A stretch of 64,000 bases of DNA from sequence record MZ189262.1; one strand, 5' to 3'. A program made the translations under genes and the position numbers. Each line of letters opens with the position of its first letter. Within the stretch, counting starts at the first letter, position 1. Below, piece by piece: positions 28,347 to 63,054 of the stretch. Origin of the DNA: Escherichia phage W143. A model generated the notes under the pieces. The model saw nothing but the letters and a program-made list of their open reading frames with translations, was not told the DNA's origin and ran no database searches.

Positions 28347-28672
28347 TTAGAAAATAAATTTATCCAAGATTGCTCTTTAATTAAAAATGGCTCAGAATCA
28401 TATGCCATTAAACTTTGGGTAATTAGTCCTTTAAAAGGCCCATCAATAAATTCCATGGTAAAATATGGAATTTTATTCATTAATCTTGCATTAGGAGCAG
28501 TGCACAAAACTCTGCATCCTTTGAATACGCCTTTTTGTAATTTGTATTGCTTAGGATAAAATTCGCTCAAGACGTTGTTATTTGCCAAAATTTCAAAATG
28601 ATTCACCAATTTATTTTTAATAGTTTTTGGCGAAAAATAAAGATATTCGAAAAGTTGCGTGTCTGTCATCAT
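28343..28672 (-). CDS. Hypothetical protein (109 aa)
   Basis: ATG 28672 forms an ATGA overlap with the upstream stop. Confidence 0.45.
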
Positions 28673-29208
28673 TGCATTCCGATTACGAAAAACTGCGGAC
28701 GAGTAATACCACCAATGCAACAATTACTATTGCAGCAGTGTTGTACAGTGTCAATATGGACGCTATAAATCTTATCCATATCAGGAGATTTAACAGGCTC
28801 ATCGATTATATACAAAATCCGCGAAAGCGATAAACCTCTGAACTTGCTTCCTTTATTACCGATAAAACTACGGACAGAATCGGTAAATAAACGAAAACGT
28901 ATATCATCATTAGAATAACGCGAAAATTCCTTTTTAATGTTATTTGCAGAAATTTTAGCGTAAGCTGAAGTATTAGAAAGAACAATAACTGTTCCACCGT
29001 CATACAACCAATTAGCGGCAAAATTAGTTACTGCAGTTGATTTACCGGATTGACGTCCACCATCTAGTCGAAGTGTGCAATACTGCTTAAGTAAGTCTTC
29101 AAATGGCGGGATATATTCGTTTTTACAAATTTCTTCTACTCTAGCATCAGAATGGTGTGTAAAAGCATTCATCAGGGATAGATAAGGACCAGTTAAAAAT
29201 GTTCTCAT
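28669..29208 (-). CDS. Small P-loop NTPase-like protein (179 aa)
   Basis: Walker A GGRQSGKST and Walker B-like ILYIIDE; ATG 29208 follows GAGAGAATAAA. Confidence 0.5.
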   Translation of the reverse strand: MRTFLTGPYLSLMNAFTHHSDARVEEICKNEYIPPFEDLLKQYCTLRLDGGRQSGKSTAVTNFAANWLYDGGTVIVLSNTSAYAKISANNIKKEFSRYSNDDIRFRLFTDSVRSFIGNKGSKFRGLSLSRILYIIDEPVKSPDMDKIYSVHIDTVQHCCNSNCCIGGITRPQFFVIGMQ

Positions 29209-29223
29209 TTTATTCTCTCTAAA

Positions 29224-29300
29224 TTTGGGCCATTCCATGGCGCATGAATTGTCCATTTCTGTATTTACCCATTACCGCACTTGGGCTCGACCTTATTACA
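29224..29300 (-). repeat. Intergenic repeat copy 1 (homologous to 29821-29895)
   Basis: 40-nt core about 90 percent identical between copies by hand alignment. Confidence 0.55.
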
Positions 29301-29480: not shown

Positions 29481-29783
29481 TTATTTACCTTTAATTACTT
29501 TAGCTGCTTCGATAGCCGCTTGCTGAAGGTCATCCATAGACATACCGAATTTAGAAGCAAAGTTATCAATTTTCTTTTCGACAGCATTCAAAGGCTTGGC
29601 CTGTTTACCTTCATTAGCGCCAGGAAGAGCGAGAATACGTTCTTTGTCAATATAAAGGCTTACAAGTTTCTTACGGTCTTTATCGGACAAATCATGAAAT
29701 GAATGGGCCTTTTTATTTATAGCGGCTTCTAATTTACCTGCACTCACTCGCGCTTCAGTAATAAATTCTTGATATGTTTTCAT
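29481..29783 (-). CDS. ipII: Internal protein II
   Basis: 100 aa; capsid-targeting leader MKTYQEFITE|A; SD AAGGAA. Confidence 0.8.
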   Translation of the reverse strand: MKTYQEFITEARVSAGKLEAAINKKAHSFHDLSDKDRKKLVSLYIDKERILALPGANEGKQAKPLNAVEKKIDNFASKFGMSMDDLQQAAIEAAKVIKGK

Positions 29784-29820
29784 ATGTTTCCTTTAAATGT
29801 AAATAGTTTTATTCTTTAAG

Positions 29821-29895
29821 TTTGGGACAATTCGCACGCATGAATTGTCCGTTTCTATATTTATCTATTACCGGGTTCGAACTCGGCTTTATTAA
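29821..29895 (-). repeat. Intergenic repeat copy 2 with 9-bp hairpin GGACAATTC/GAATTGTCC
   Basis: Hairpin at 29824-29849; lies between the ipIII stop and ipII start. Confidence 0.55.
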
Positions 29896-30473
29896 GAATT
29901 ACCACGGGCTGCATTAGCAACGGCGTAAGCGTACTGAACATTAGCGTCTTTAAACGTACCTTTAGAGGTATCTAGTTCTGCCTTAAAGCCGCCTTTAGCC
30001 ATAACATCGGCAAATTCTTTACGGAAAGCCATTGCATCAAGACCTTTCCATGATGATTTGTGCTTAGCGAATTCAAGACCAGCGTAGTTGACAGCTTTAG
30101 CCAATTTATTATCAATGACCCATTTACCGGCTTTAGGCACAAACTTCGGGCCTTTTTGTTTAGAGAACAGTTTTAAATTCCAGCGACGAAGATCACTGTC
30201 GGCTTTAACAAAAGCTGCGTCTAAGTTACTAGCAACAACATCTTCAATATGAGCAAATTTAAGTCCGTCAACTTCAATATTTAAATCGGTACGCCAGCGA
30301 AGTCCTTCCCAAGCGAAAGCTTTAAAATCGGAAGCTTTTGTAGCTAAGTATCGTTCAATAGGGGCTGTTTTAGGGTCAAAGCCGTTTCCACCACGATAGT
30401 TCCACTCGTCCTTATTAATGCCTTTGGCCTTTACTACAGAAGCTTCAGCAATAAATTCTTGATACGTTTTCAT
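29892..30473 (-). CDS. ipIII: Internal protein III
   Basis: 193 aa; leader MKTYQEFIAE|A. Confidence 0.8.
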   Translation of the reverse strand: MKTYQEFIAEASVVKAKGINKDEWNYRGGNGFDPKTAPIERYLATKASDFKAFAWEGLRWRTDLNIEVDGLKFAHIEDVVASNLDAAFVKADSDLRRWNLKLFSKQKGPKFVPKAGKWVIDNKLAKAVNYAGLEFAKHKSSWKGLDAMAFRKEFADVMAKGGFKAELDTSKGTFKDANVQYAYAVANAARGNS

Positions 30474-30499
30474 TTTTGTTCCTATTGTTTTAATTCATG

Positions 30500-30814
30500 T
30501 TATTCTTTAGGGAAGTTTTTAGAGTATGCGTCATAAAGTTTATTACCGATGCGTCGGAAAACTCTAGCTGCAAAACGGTTTTCAGGGTTTTTAATCATGA
30601 TTTGCATCATGTAAGTTCCTGCATCCGAAAGAGCTTCTTCATAGTACCCATTAATTTCTTTAAGAGTCCTACGTTTACCACCAGGACCATCAACAGTAAT
30701 TTTCCATTTACCTGTAGAAGTGCGGCTCGGTGGCTCAACTTGTTCAATCCAAATATAACCACCTTCAACGCGTTGGTTGGCGGATTCTGCAATAAATTCT
30801 TTATACGTTTTCAT
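30500..30814 (-). CDS. Internal-protein-like capsid-targeted protein (104 aa)
   Basis: Leader MKTYKEFIAE|S; body not recognisable to me as IPI, IPII or IPIII. Confidence 0.65.
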   Translation of the reverse strand: MKTYKEFIAESANQRVEGGYIWIEQVEPPSRTSTGKWKITVDGPGGKRRTLKEINGYYEEALSDAGTYMMQIMIKNPENRFAARVFRRIGNKLYDAYSKNFPKE

Positions 30815-30844
30815 TTTTGTTTCCTTGTTTGTTTTGATAGAGTA

Positions 30845-30874
30845 ATTATACCATATTAATACTTAAGCGTAAAC
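30845..30874 (-). promoter_or_regulatory. Early promoter GTTTAC-N18-TATAAT upstream of the ip-like gene
   Basis: -35 at 30869-30874, -10 at 30845-30850. Confidence 0.55.
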
Positions 30875-30877
30875 CGT

Positions 30878-31138
30878 TTAAGCTTCACCGCCAGAAATAA
30901 TTCCGAAGTTGTTAAAATCGTATCCAATATCGTCAACATCTACTTTAGGACTTGCAGCAACATAAGCAATTTCACTACGTTTTGCATAGGTGTTGATTTC
31001 TTTACCATCACCACCTAAGAAAAAATACCCATTACGTTTTAATGAGCCAAAGTCTTCCGCATCACCAATGAAAGCTTTAACTTTAAATTTAGGACCTTTG
31101 GCATCTGCTTCAGCGATAAATTCTTGATACATTTTCAT
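30878..31138 (-). CDS. Internal-protein-like capsid-targeted protein (86 aa)
   Basis: Leader MKMYQEFIAE|A; divergent body. Confidence 0.65.
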   Translation of the reverse strand: MKMYQEFIAEADAKGPKFKVKAFIGDAEDFGSLKRNGYFFLGGDGKEINTYAKRSEIAYVAASPKVDVDDIGYDFNNFGIISGGEA

Positions 31139-31144
31139 TTTTCC

Positions 31145-31558
31145 TTAGTAAATTGATTTACCATAGTATTTGTACCAAGTAGGGCGTTGAGCAATTTTTT
31201 CATCTAAGCGAGCTTGACTTATCGCAATGGACGCTTCGGACGGGACATAATTATTACGAAATTCGACAGGGATGTCGGAAATATCCTGGACAGTCGTGTC
31301 CTTGATTTTGAAACCACGTTTCAAGCATTCAGCGATTAGCTCGATTTGACGTAAACGTAAAAATTCTAGTTTGTCGTAAAAGAATGTTACGTGACCTGTG
31401 CCTAAGATAAATGTTGGAGAGATTTTAAAATCCTTTACACGTTTACCGTTTTGAACATGTTTACGGACTGCACCAAATACGCGTGGTAATTCACGATACT
31501 CAGCCATAAGATGTTGGTCGGTCAGTTCAGAAACAAGTGTTAAATTGATACGAGTCAT
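31145..31558 (-). CDS. denV: Endonuclease V (pyrimidine-dimer DNA glycosylase)
   Basis: Track start is TTG 31570; ATG 31558 gives 137 aa starting [12 protein letters not shown], matching my recollection of T4 endonuclease V. Confidence 0.9.
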
Positions 31559-31617: not shown

Positions 31618-32420
<803 letters not shown>

Positions 32421-32876
32421 TTAAAAGAGGCTGTTCATTATTCGGTAAAGTGAAGGACCCATCACATATTGCCACTGGGTACGAGGAATAAGAGCAAAAG
32501 CGTCCATCTCTGGAATCATAACGCCATCTTTATTTTCAAAATAAGACTCGCAATGGCAATTTCTAAACATCTCATGCTCTACTGGAATCGTATAATAAAA
32601 TAACTGTAAGTCTTTATTACTAGAATATTTAAATACACCTAGGTCTTCTAGAAGGTCTGGATTATAATTGCTAAAACCAGTCTCTTCTAAACATTCTCTT
32701 CGTGCTGCATCTAATGCGCTTAAATCAGAATTTTCTACACGGCCCTTTGGAATATCCCAGCGATGTGCCATCATTCCAGGCTTACGAGAACCAGTAACCC
32801 GACCCATAAATAAATCTTTATCTTCTGTCATAAAGATAATACCAGCTGATAATGTTTTCATTTTAATTTCCTGCAT
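32421..32876 (-). CDS. nudE: Nudix hydrolase NudE
   Basis: 151 aa; Nudix box GRVENSDLSALDAARRECLEETGF. Confidence 0.8.
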   Translation of the reverse strand: MQEIKMKTLSAGIIFMTEDKDLFMGRVTGSRKPGMMAHRWDIPKGRVENSDLSALDAARRECLEETGFSNYNPDLLEDLGVFKYSSNKDLQLFYYTIPVEHEMFRNCHCESYFENKDGVMIPEMDAFALIPRTQWQYVMGPSLYRIMNSLF

Positions 32877-36462: not shown

Positions 36463-37128
36463 TTAAAATTTCATTTTTCGACCTTTAAACCATCCTTCTG
36501 GAATTGGGTCAGTTTTCTTAATACGTTTAGAAACTTTTTCATCTAATGAATGAATCCACATCATACCGAATTGGGAATTCTTTTCACCTTGTTGGTGTTT
36601 ATTTCTGGCGTGAGATTCTTTCATTTTATTAATAGTTTCAGGAGTATGATGCTTATTTAAAAATCTGCTATTATTTAAAAATTTTTCCCTGTATTCAGGA
36701 GTTGACCACAAGCGTTTAAATATATTTGAACCATGTTTACGATATTTTTCTTGAAGTAAAATATCATTTTTAAAACGTGACTTAAACGATTTAGCTCCTT
36801 TTAAACTAGCGTCTTTCTTCTGATTTAGCATCTCAGGAATATTTAAATGGTCCCATCCACCTTCACCGCCAAGTTTTAAATTATACACATCTGGTCTATT
36901 TAAAAACTCTTCTGTGACAATATTTTTCTCGGCTTCAAGCATAGATTCTTTATCATCAAAATACTCTAATATTTCTTTAGAGAAATTTTCTATACCATAC
37001 TTGTCTTGGGCTCTTTTTAATAATTTACCAGAACCCATATATCCATCATCTAAATTTTCGGTAGAATGAGCGCCTATGTAGATTTTATTATTAATTTTAT
37101 TTGTTATTTTATAAATGTAATGGAACAT
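36463..37128 (-). CDS. segB: GIY-YIG homing endonuclease SegB-like, embedded in the tRNA cluster
   Basis: 221 aa; motifs YIYKITN...KIYIGAHS, DDGYMGSG, GGEGG; lies between tRNA-Ile and tRNA-Arg. Confidence 0.8.
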   Translation of the reverse strand: MFHYIYKITNKINNKIYIGAHSTENLDDGYMGSGKLLKRAQDKYGIENFSKEILEYFDDKESMLEAEKNIVTEEFLNRPDVYNLKLGGEGGWDHLNIPEMLNQKKDASLKGAKSFKSRFKNDILLQEKYRKHGSNIFKRLWSTPEYREKFLNNSRFLNKHHTPETINKMKESHARNKHQQGEKNSQFGMMWIHSLDEKVSKRIKKTDPIPEGWFKGRKMKF

Positions 37129-38376: not shown

Positions 38377-38685
38377 CTATTTTATTCCGCGTGATGCAAT
38401 TGTATTCTGTCGTTTAGCACCAGTTTGTTTAAAGTCATGATTGTCGATTTGATCGGTACGAGCAACTCCGAATGATGATTTAATCTTAGCTTTAGATCCT
38501 TTAGTTATAGAAATAAACATCTCGGAAGCCCCTTTCTTAAAGTCCAAAGCAATTACTTCAACACCGTTCTTAGCAAGTGACTTCAGAATTGCCTCCGCGT
38601 ATTCATCATCAAGACTCGCCTGAGTATTAATAACGAATGTCTTTGGTGCAGCCGCTTCATTGATAAATTCTTTAAATGTTTTCAT
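38377..38685 (-). CDS. Internal-protein-like capsid-targeted protein (102 aa)
   Basis: Leader MKTFKEFINE|A; SD AGGA. Confidence 0.65.
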   Translation of the reverse strand: MKTFKEFINEAAAPKTFVINTQASLDDEYAEAILKSLAKNGVEVIALDFKKGASEMFISITKGSKAKIKSSFGVARTDQIDNHDFKQTGAKRQNTIASRGIK

Positions 38686-38745: not shown

Positions 38746-39018
38746 TCATTTTAAATAAATTGCATATTTTTTATAACCCGCTGACTCATGACGAAGACCC
38801 TTATCATTAGCAAAACGCTCAATGTTGTTAATTTGATTCTGGTCAAGTTCAGAGATGTCAAACACGAAAAAGTTACGTTTGTTACCAACTGTTACATAGT
38901 CAGTTAAATCAATATCATATAGGTAATTGATGTCAGCAATCAAAGTCTTGACAGCTTTGCTAATTTTTACTTTTTCGTTAAAAGCAGCTTCATTGATAAA
39001 TTCTTTAAATGTTTTCAT
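38746..39018 (-). CDS. Internal-protein-like capsid-targeted protein (90 aa) at the ipI locus
   Basis: Track start is TTG 39030; ATG 39018 follows GGAGAATAAA; leader MKTFKEFINE|A. Confidence 0.65.
   Translation of the reverse strand: MKTFKEFINEAAFNEKVKISKAVKTLIADINYLYDIDLTDYVTVGNKRNFFVFDISELDQNQINNIERFANDKGLRHESAGYKKYAIYLK

Positions 39019-59913: not shown

Positions 59914-63054
<3,141 letters not shown>

Follow-up and report, generated by a model that had tools for sequence, protein, structure and literature searches.

The DNA analysed here is a stretch of 64,000 nucleotides from Escherichia phage W143 (sequence record MZ189262.1), referred to as the window, and our subject is an array of small genes within it that encode internal proteins (IPs) of the T-even type or proteins that resemble them, above all a 104-residue protein and an 86-residue protein. 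The window belongs to a T-even phage: in this region its DNA shares 93-98% identity with genomes of Tequatrovirus and Mosigvirus. T-even phages of this kind have two polymorphic IP loci, and the array occupies one of them. T-even IPs occupy two variable loci, one in the e/denV/vs region and the other extending from 57B to the tRNA region (PMC12373910, PMC2839356), and both can be recognised in the window: the array lies between gene e (31896-32384, minus strand) and genes of the vs region, and a further pair of leader-bearing genes, ip7 and ip9, lies beside 57B/57A. The array is on the minus strand throughout, and the order in the direction of transcription is nudE, e, ip5, denV, the gene for the 86-residue protein (below, the 86-residue gene), ip10, ipIII and ipII. 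The corresponding T4 genes run e, ipIII, ipII, denV, whereas here ipIII and ipII lie downstream of denV, which has three additional ip cassettes around it.

Four tandem open reading frames (ORFs) between positions 29481 and 31138 begin with MK(T/M)Y(Q/K)EFI(A/T)E followed by A or S, as an earlier note on this sequence had described, and all four are found there on the minus strand. They are ipII (29481-29783, 100 residues, MKTYQEFITE/A, the slash marking the predicted cleavage point and the leader being encoded at 29754-29783), ipIII (29892-30473, 193 residues, MKTYQEFIAE/A), ip10 (30500-30814, 104 residues, MKTYKEFIAE/S) and the 86-residue gene (30878-31138, MKMYQEFIAE/A). The names given in that note to the first two hold good, since ipII encodes a protein 94% identical to T4 IpII (phrog_7857, 'internal virion protein', E = 4.5e-55) and ipIII one 95% identical to T4 IpIII (phrog_5341, E = 2.3e-117); the exact IpIII sequence was found in Escherichia phage W143. 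The four listed genes are thus real, but the count falls short, as the locus holds five such genes with ip5 and the window seven with ip7 and ip9. The fifth, ip5 (31618-31899, minus strand, 93 residues), is located between e and denV, has S after its leader and matches phrog_3499 ('internal head protein', E = 1.2e-46); its counterpart between e and denV in phage VR25 carries the annotation 'ip5, similar to T6 Ip5'. The other two belong to the second IP locus and share the leader MKTFKEFINE/A, ip7 (38377-38685, minus strand, 102 residues) encoding a protein 99% identical to 'Ip7' of RB32 (phrog_2667, E = 2.2e-41) and ip9 (38746-39018, minus strand, 90 residues, next to 57B) one that is 80% identical to 'ip9' of VR7 and VR26 (phrog_7673, E = 1e-54).

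A relaxed leader pattern, M[KR]x[YF]x[ED][FYL][ILVM]xE, has seven matches in the six-frame translation of the window, each of them beginning at the initiation codon of an ORF on the minus strand, while 100 mononucleotide shuffles gave a mean of 0.01 matches and a maximum of 1. All of these ORFs are preceded by a ribosome-binding site, which is GGA-rich for the four at 29481-31138. Alt, which the earlier note had counted among the proteins directed by this leader, is not known to have this ten-residue leader. It has a different propeptide, of seven residues (PMC9026906). Targeting of T4 IPIII depends on residues 4 and 7 of the leader and its processing on residues 8 and 10, with gp21 cleaving after L/I-x-E, and in T4 the ten residues are enough to package foreign proteins (PMC9026906). 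In all seven leader genes the fourth residue is aromatic and positions 7, 8 and 10 hold Phe, Ile or Leu, and Glu, respectively, the four ORFs at 29481-31138 having Y4, F7, I8 and E10, in agreement with the view that the leader is the T4 capsid targeting sequence (CTS) with its cleavage site. The same four features are retained in all the homologues that we inspected, down to a body identity of 41%, and even divergent leaders such as MQTFHEFLVE of P0075 and MKTYQEFLTE of the Ip10 of phage CIP9 conform to them.

A separate observation concerns Ip9, whose mature body has a 50% identical homologue of 72 residues, without the leader, in phage SHAK7858 (OR594183, 1507-1725), an unrelated phage of 44.5 kb in which its neighbours are small early ORFs; Salmonella phages of about 155 kb contain weaker matches to the Ip9 body. 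The leaderless homologue suggests that ordinary accessory genes have had the leader grafted onto them as a portable tag.

The two remaining genes of the tandem array are those that the earlier note had left without recognition. Their bodies are indeed not those of IPI, IPII or IPIII, to judge from their different PHROG assignments, and neither is a close orthologue of any of the three, but one of them is the long-named Ip10 and the other already bears the label 'internal head protein' in RefSeq. We identify the 104-residue protein as Ip10, a database entry of 1994, on the strength of its sequence: it is 96% identical over 97 residues to Ip10 of phage Pol (CAA84455/Q38382), falls in the same 90% cluster as RB69ORF124c and is 71% identical to the annotated ip10 products of VR25 and SP18. 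Homologues are present in 189 phage records. The predicted mature form has 94 residues, a mass of 10.8 kDa, an isoelectric point (pI) of 9.6 and 16 lysines and arginines. In comparison with Gaprivervirus homologues (dS 0.8-1.1), the ratio of nonsynonymous to synonymous substitution rates (dN/dS) of the gene is 0.19-0.20. An AlphaFold2 model, based on a shallow alignment, has three strands followed by helices and reaches a mean confidence (pLDDT) of 61. The fold of the CsgH/CsgC curli inhibitors was considered for this protein and rejected, as the Pfam CsgH match scores 13.4 bits (E = 0.08) where the cutoff is 27, the PDB entry 2n59 matches at E = 0.29, and the model, itself of low confidence, disagrees with an all-beta sandwich.

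The 86-residue protein belongs to the family of RB69ORF125c, SP18_gp123 and VR7 gp127, for which RefSeq gives 'internal head protein' and the annotations seen give no Ip number; homology to a named Ip therefore holds only at the level of database labels, the matches being unnamed 'internal head protein' entries. By cluster look-up, Escherichia phage W143 (QWV60471) is the only phage with the exact sequence, and relatives with 62-98% identity are present in 216 phage records. The family is narrow, with 11 clusters among 5.8 billion proteins, P0075 being a distant member, and a HMMER search with the mature body against 1.84 billion representatives returned five matches, all from the family itself. 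The predicted mature form has 76 residues, a mass of 8.1 kDa and a pI of 4.9. The gene has a dN/dS of 0.21-0.25 in comparison with Gaprivervirus homologues (dS again 0.8-1.1), and with ratios of about 0.2 in both genes the two bodies are under clear purifying selection. The AlphaFold2 prediction for the 86-residue protein, again from a shallow alignment, attains a pLDDT of 79 in one of five models, with the elements in the order beta-alpha-beta-beta-alpha-beta, and agrees with the model of a homologue in BFVD (TM 0.83) and with that of a protein of Morganella phage MP1 with 26% identity (TM 0.78). The protein matches two PHROG families, phrog_2667 and phrog_35655. The latter corresponds to a stub of 36 residues, consisting of leader plus tail, that results from a recurrent in-frame deletion of 144 nt between GTCCTAAA repeats, as in phage TU01 (907-1017). 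The former is common to this protein and Ip7, and together with a suggestive joint alignment it had raised the idea of a diverged Ip7 paralogue, which we rejected: without the leaders, hhalign gives a probability of 0.2% (E = 0.26), and BLASTP gives E = 0.1. Given this dissimilarity, phrog_2667 evidently pools both kinds of sequence. As a separate matter, a cluster look-up placed the 86-residue protein and Ip5 in one 90% cluster ('cluster 2'), though only the ten-residue leader is common to them; the grouping is probably an artefact, either of the clustering or of the labelling.

The profile and structure searches with mature sequences that the earlier note had recommended separate the two proteins from Ip1-3 and give no hint of what they do. 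Pfam and NCBIfam contain nothing significant for Ip10 or the 86-residue protein, only noise below threshold. In the PDB neither has a sequence homologue, and IPI*, for which a structure solved by nuclear magnetic resonance exists, is absent among the matches. A fold search of BFVD yielded only uncharacterised homologues from T4-like phages, and leaderless hhalign comparisons found no mutual similarity among the families of the 86-residue protein, Ip7 and Ip10. Neither body has detectable sequence or fold similarity to Ip1, Ip2 or Ip3, and the PHROG families differ. Since Ip1, Ip2 and Ip3 are themselves unrelated to one another (PMC12373910), however, the lack of such similarity says little about function. 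With searches at all three levels, sequence, profile and structure, giving no functional clue, the best explanation rests on the context of the family.

Related phages differ by the gain and loss of cassettes. The locus around the array is matched by 834-932 records, as compared with 189 for Ip10 and 216 for the 86-residue gene. The ip10 gene is missing from phage mogra, in which ipIII carries the upstream spacer of ip10, its early promoter and its Lys codon at leader position 5. An ipIII gene with these upstream features and this codon places the insertion/deletion junction inside the leader-coding repeat of about 30 nt. In IME340 it is ipII that is missing, and in TU01 ipIII. In SP18 the order is denV, ip10, a homologue of the 86-residue gene and an Ip7-like gene, the neighbours at the loci of VR25 and SP18 being annotated ip5, ip10 and ip7, and in CIP9 it is denV, an Ip10-like gene and an Ip7-like gene. 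Such a patchy distribution of ip10 and the 86-residue gene fits accessory genes of host range. Polymorphism of the IP loci was reportedly described by Repoila et al. in 1994, to whom later papers credit it.

The arrangement of promoters bears on how these genes may be expressed. Upstream of ip10 lies a T4-type early promoter (30845-30882, minus strand) with TTTACG, a 17-nt spacer and TG-TATAAT, which is the best promoter match in the region (10/12 with an extended -10). An AT-rich stem-loop covers its -35 box and the stop codon of the 86-residue gene; with -6.4 kcal/mol and z = -1.3 it was not accepted as a significant structure on its own. In the second locus, ip7 and ip9 each have their own T4-type early promoter. 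The start codon of the 86-residue gene lies 6 nt past the stop codon of denV, and the ATG of ip5 overlaps the stop codon of e (ATGA), so both genes are probably co-transcribed with their upstream neighbours. A pattern scan found two perfect T4 late-promoter boxes (TATAAATA) at 32398-32418 on the minus strand, upstream of gene e, and no further perfect late box upstream of the array, and we infer that late transcripts of the ip genes probably arise by read-through from these two boxes.

What such proteins can do is known from T4. There, Ip1 inhibits the GmrSD enzyme of strain CT596, Ip2 the GmrSD/BrxU enzyme of ECOR21 and Ip3 the two-gene GmrSD of ECOR17 (PMC12373910, PMC9391042); no cross-protection is seen among the three (PMC12373910), and IPIII is required for infection of ECOR17 and active in the cytoplasm without its leader (PMC9391042). 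The earlier note's statement that T4 IPI is an inhibitor of GmrSD accords with the CT596 result, and its proposal that the extra CTS-bearing proteins are candidates for injected anti-defence effectors agrees, by analogy, with the published work on Ip1-3. We consider it probable that Ip10 and the 86-residue protein are anti-defence cassettes of this kind, CTS-tagged, packaged, cleaved and injected. Each IP would be made with the ten-residue N-terminal CTS and would dock by means of it to the prohead's scaffolding core. Cleavage by gp21 after Glu10 (I/L-x-E) would then leave the mature bodies in the head, that of Ip10 (Ip10*) being basic and about 10.8 kDa, that of the 86-residue protein mildly acidic and about 8.1 kDa. 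At infection the mature proteins would exit with the DNA, and entering together with it they could act before any phage gene is expressed. By analogy with Ip1-3, they would most likely serve as stoichiometric inhibitors of particular first-response host defences that target DNA, with variants of the GmrSD-family type IV enzymes as the first candidates. The array itself would be reshuffled by homologous recombination between the near-identical leader-coding sequences and the promoter-bearing spacers, as a result of which phages hold different subsets of cassettes. The sequence itself establishes which genes these are, that the leader is conserved, that selection is purifying and where cassettes join, whereas packaging, cleavage, injection and anti-restriction activity of the two proteins are proposed on top of it. 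The parts of this account differ in strength: packaging of the two proteins, which their conserved leaders point to, is highly likely, while for an anti-defence role, suggested by what Ip1-3 do, we judge the balance to be only slightly favourable.

Several observations weigh against this account. One is a screen of ip4-10 against 15 GmrSD groups, in which no reproducible inhibition was seen (PMC12373910), although the 'ip10' of that study is not confirmed as the present family and the 86-residue family was possibly not included. With no reproducible match, the obvious class of target, GmrSD, has already partly failed, and the target may be an untested GmrSD variant or a system of another class. 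In the literature that we searched, no virion proteome names Ip10, RB69ORF124c or RB69ORF125c. A Foldseek comparison of the Ip10 and 86-residue models with the PDB gave no match at E <= 0.001, the models being weak. The 86-residue protein is mildly acidic, which is unusual beside the classically basic IPs, and its gene is often frameshifted, truncated or deleted in relatives. Finally, a head component would not strictly need an early promoter such as ip10 has, and directly upstream of ip10 or the 86-residue gene the pattern scan found no perfect late promoter. While it is feasible that the 86-residue protein, alone in the array in not being basic and in lacking an Ip number, and with no published test among the papers searched, is an injected inhibitor of a first-response defence beyond the GmrSD variants screened, and that Ip10 acts likewise on a type IV enzyme outside the screen, we put this forward as a tentative and rather doubtful possibility. 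The targets in such a case could include another modification-dependent nuclease or a sensor at DNA entry, and, if this were true, the frequent loss of the 86-residue gene in relatives would reflect a cost, or a liability as a trigger, on hosts that lack the defence.

One could also suppose that the extra proteins are mainly structural or charge-balancing components of the head interior, which aid assembly of the prohead core or condensation of the DNA. Mature Ip10 is basic (pI 9.6, with 16 lysines and arginines among 94 residues), as are IpII, IpIII and Ip7, and the T4 IPs, of which there are about 300 copies each, bind DNA at low salt, with IPIII mutants being slower in head assembly (PMC9026906). 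Such a role is nevertheless unlikely, as ip10 and the 86-residue gene are dispensable and patchy, with whole cassettes missing in close relatives, as the 86-residue protein is mildly acidic, and as all three IPs that have been characterised, Ip1, Ip2 and Ip3, turned out to be inhibitors of defence. A different challenge comes from the leader. If it were a recombination linker or a historical remnant, Ip10 and the 86-residue protein could be ordinary early cytoplasmic accessory proteins that are not injected, an idea that draws on the strong T4-type early promoter before ip10, the cassette junction inside the leader-coding repeat, the leaderless Ip9 body that is an early gene in the unrelated 44.5-kb phage, and the function of IPIII in the cytoplasm without a leader (PMC9391042). 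The residues for targeting and cleavage, however, are conserved despite diverged DNA and bodies that are only 41-55% identical, ten residues package foreign proteins in T4 (PMC9026906), and a gene expressed both early and late can still have a packaged product, so we regard this idea as improbable.

The high frequency of frameshifted, truncated and internally deleted copies in relatives, including the recurrent stub left by the 144-nt deletion, could also mean that the 86-residue gene is a cassette in decay, which no longer serves this phage in any way. In the window, though, the gene is undamaged, with a canonical ribosome-binding site and a dN/dS of 0.21-0.25 across genera, and the predicted fold matches the independently modelled BFVD homologue (TM 0.83) and the model from the Morganella phage (TM 0.78), and decay therefore appears very improbable to us. 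Taken jointly, the structural, linker and decay explanations make up an unlikely outcome, albeit one that carries some weight, and packaged, injected anti-defence proteins remain the account we prefer.

Around the array, nudE (32421-32876) and e, the lysozyme gene, precede the ip genes on the minus strand, and denV (endonuclease V; 31145-31558, minus strand) lies within them, identified by Pfam Pyr_excise (E = 3.6e-14) and phrog_1183 (E = 2.6e-62), with its ATG start chosen by homology to annotated relatives. The spacer between ipIII and ipII contains a stable hairpin (29825-29850) with a stem of 9-10 bp and -12.4 kcal/mol (z = -3.5 against shuffles); no U-run comes after it when the coding (minus) strand is read. 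Downstream of ipII, past a spacer of 224 nt, an ORF of 195 residues (28669-29256, minus strand) has a Walker-A-like motif, GGRQSGKST; one relative labels this stretch 'large terminase subunit', which looks like a mislabelling. Between the two IP loci, close to the presumed tRNA region, lies an ORF of 221 residues (36463-37128, minus strand) that begins with MFHYIYKITNKINNKIYIGAHS and resembles the N-terminus of GIY-YIG homing endonucleases, possibly a seg-like gene. Among the ORFs listed for the window, the last long one (61219-63051, 610 residues) is, by its length alone, presumably the large terminase gp17. Genes 20-23 would fall beyond gp17. The complete Tequatrovirus and Mosigvirus genomes to which the phage is 94-98% identical all have gene 21, which encodes the prohead protease gp21.

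As a whole, the phage carries Ip2, Ip3, Ip5, Ip7, Ip9, Ip10 and the 86-residue protein and has no Ip1 gene, from which we infer that it should be sensitive to GmrSD of the CT596 type. The IPs are the only counter-defence factors of T-even phages that are in the cell ahead of phage gene expression, and because each characterised IP sets infectivity on particular wild E. coli, the cassette content of a therapeutic or environmental T-even phage can be taken as a marker of host range. The earlier note's reading of the array was correct without being new, as the leader, the two loci, the shuffling of cassettes and the anti-restriction hypothesis had all been published, the anti-defence hypothesis reportedly going back decades, to Repoila in 1994, as later papers cite it. 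Ip10 and the 86-residue family remain orphan effectors, and identifying what they act on would add to an arms race that is already known and would not reveal a new one.

The closest counterparts of the two proteins are found in other T-even phages; for Ip10 they are the Ip10 of Pol (Repoila et al. 1994), RB69ORF124c and the ip10 products of SP18, VR25 and VR7. Ip10 of Pol, an entry of 99 residues, shares the leader with the present protein, whose gene is at the locus beside denV, as in VR25 and SP18, and differs by an indel of one residue after the leader and by another C-terminal tail, and otherwise in nothing of substance. The members of the RB69ORF125c family from Gaprivervirus and Gelderlandvirus have the same length, leader and locus as the 86-residue protein, with 63-73% identity, and the copy in the window differs from that family in having Met, not Thr, at leader position 3. 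Dar of phage P1, which acts against type I restriction, is an analogy only, consisting of unrelated proteins in an unrelated phage and without a T4-type leader. A published account (PMC12810830) describes Dar proteins as packaged in the head and ejected with the DNA, which they shield from restriction. A further parallel is provided by the PeSL (promoter-early stem-loop) cassettes of RB49 and phi1 and by the 'PeSL-like' promoter/stem-loop elements that, according to Arbiol et al., flank both IP loci, for which more than 30 IP variants are known (PMC2839356). Here, too, ip10 has an early promoter with an AT-rich stem-loop over the -35 box, and the cassette is present or absent among close relatives with junctions in conserved flanks, whereas the ip10 stem-loop is weak (z = -1.3) and the mapped junction lies in leader-coding sequence and not in the promoter element. 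With IPI* (Ip1), Ip2 and Ip3 of T4, finally, Ip10 and the 86-residue protein have in common the leader, the small size, the same two loci, non-essentiality and variable presence.

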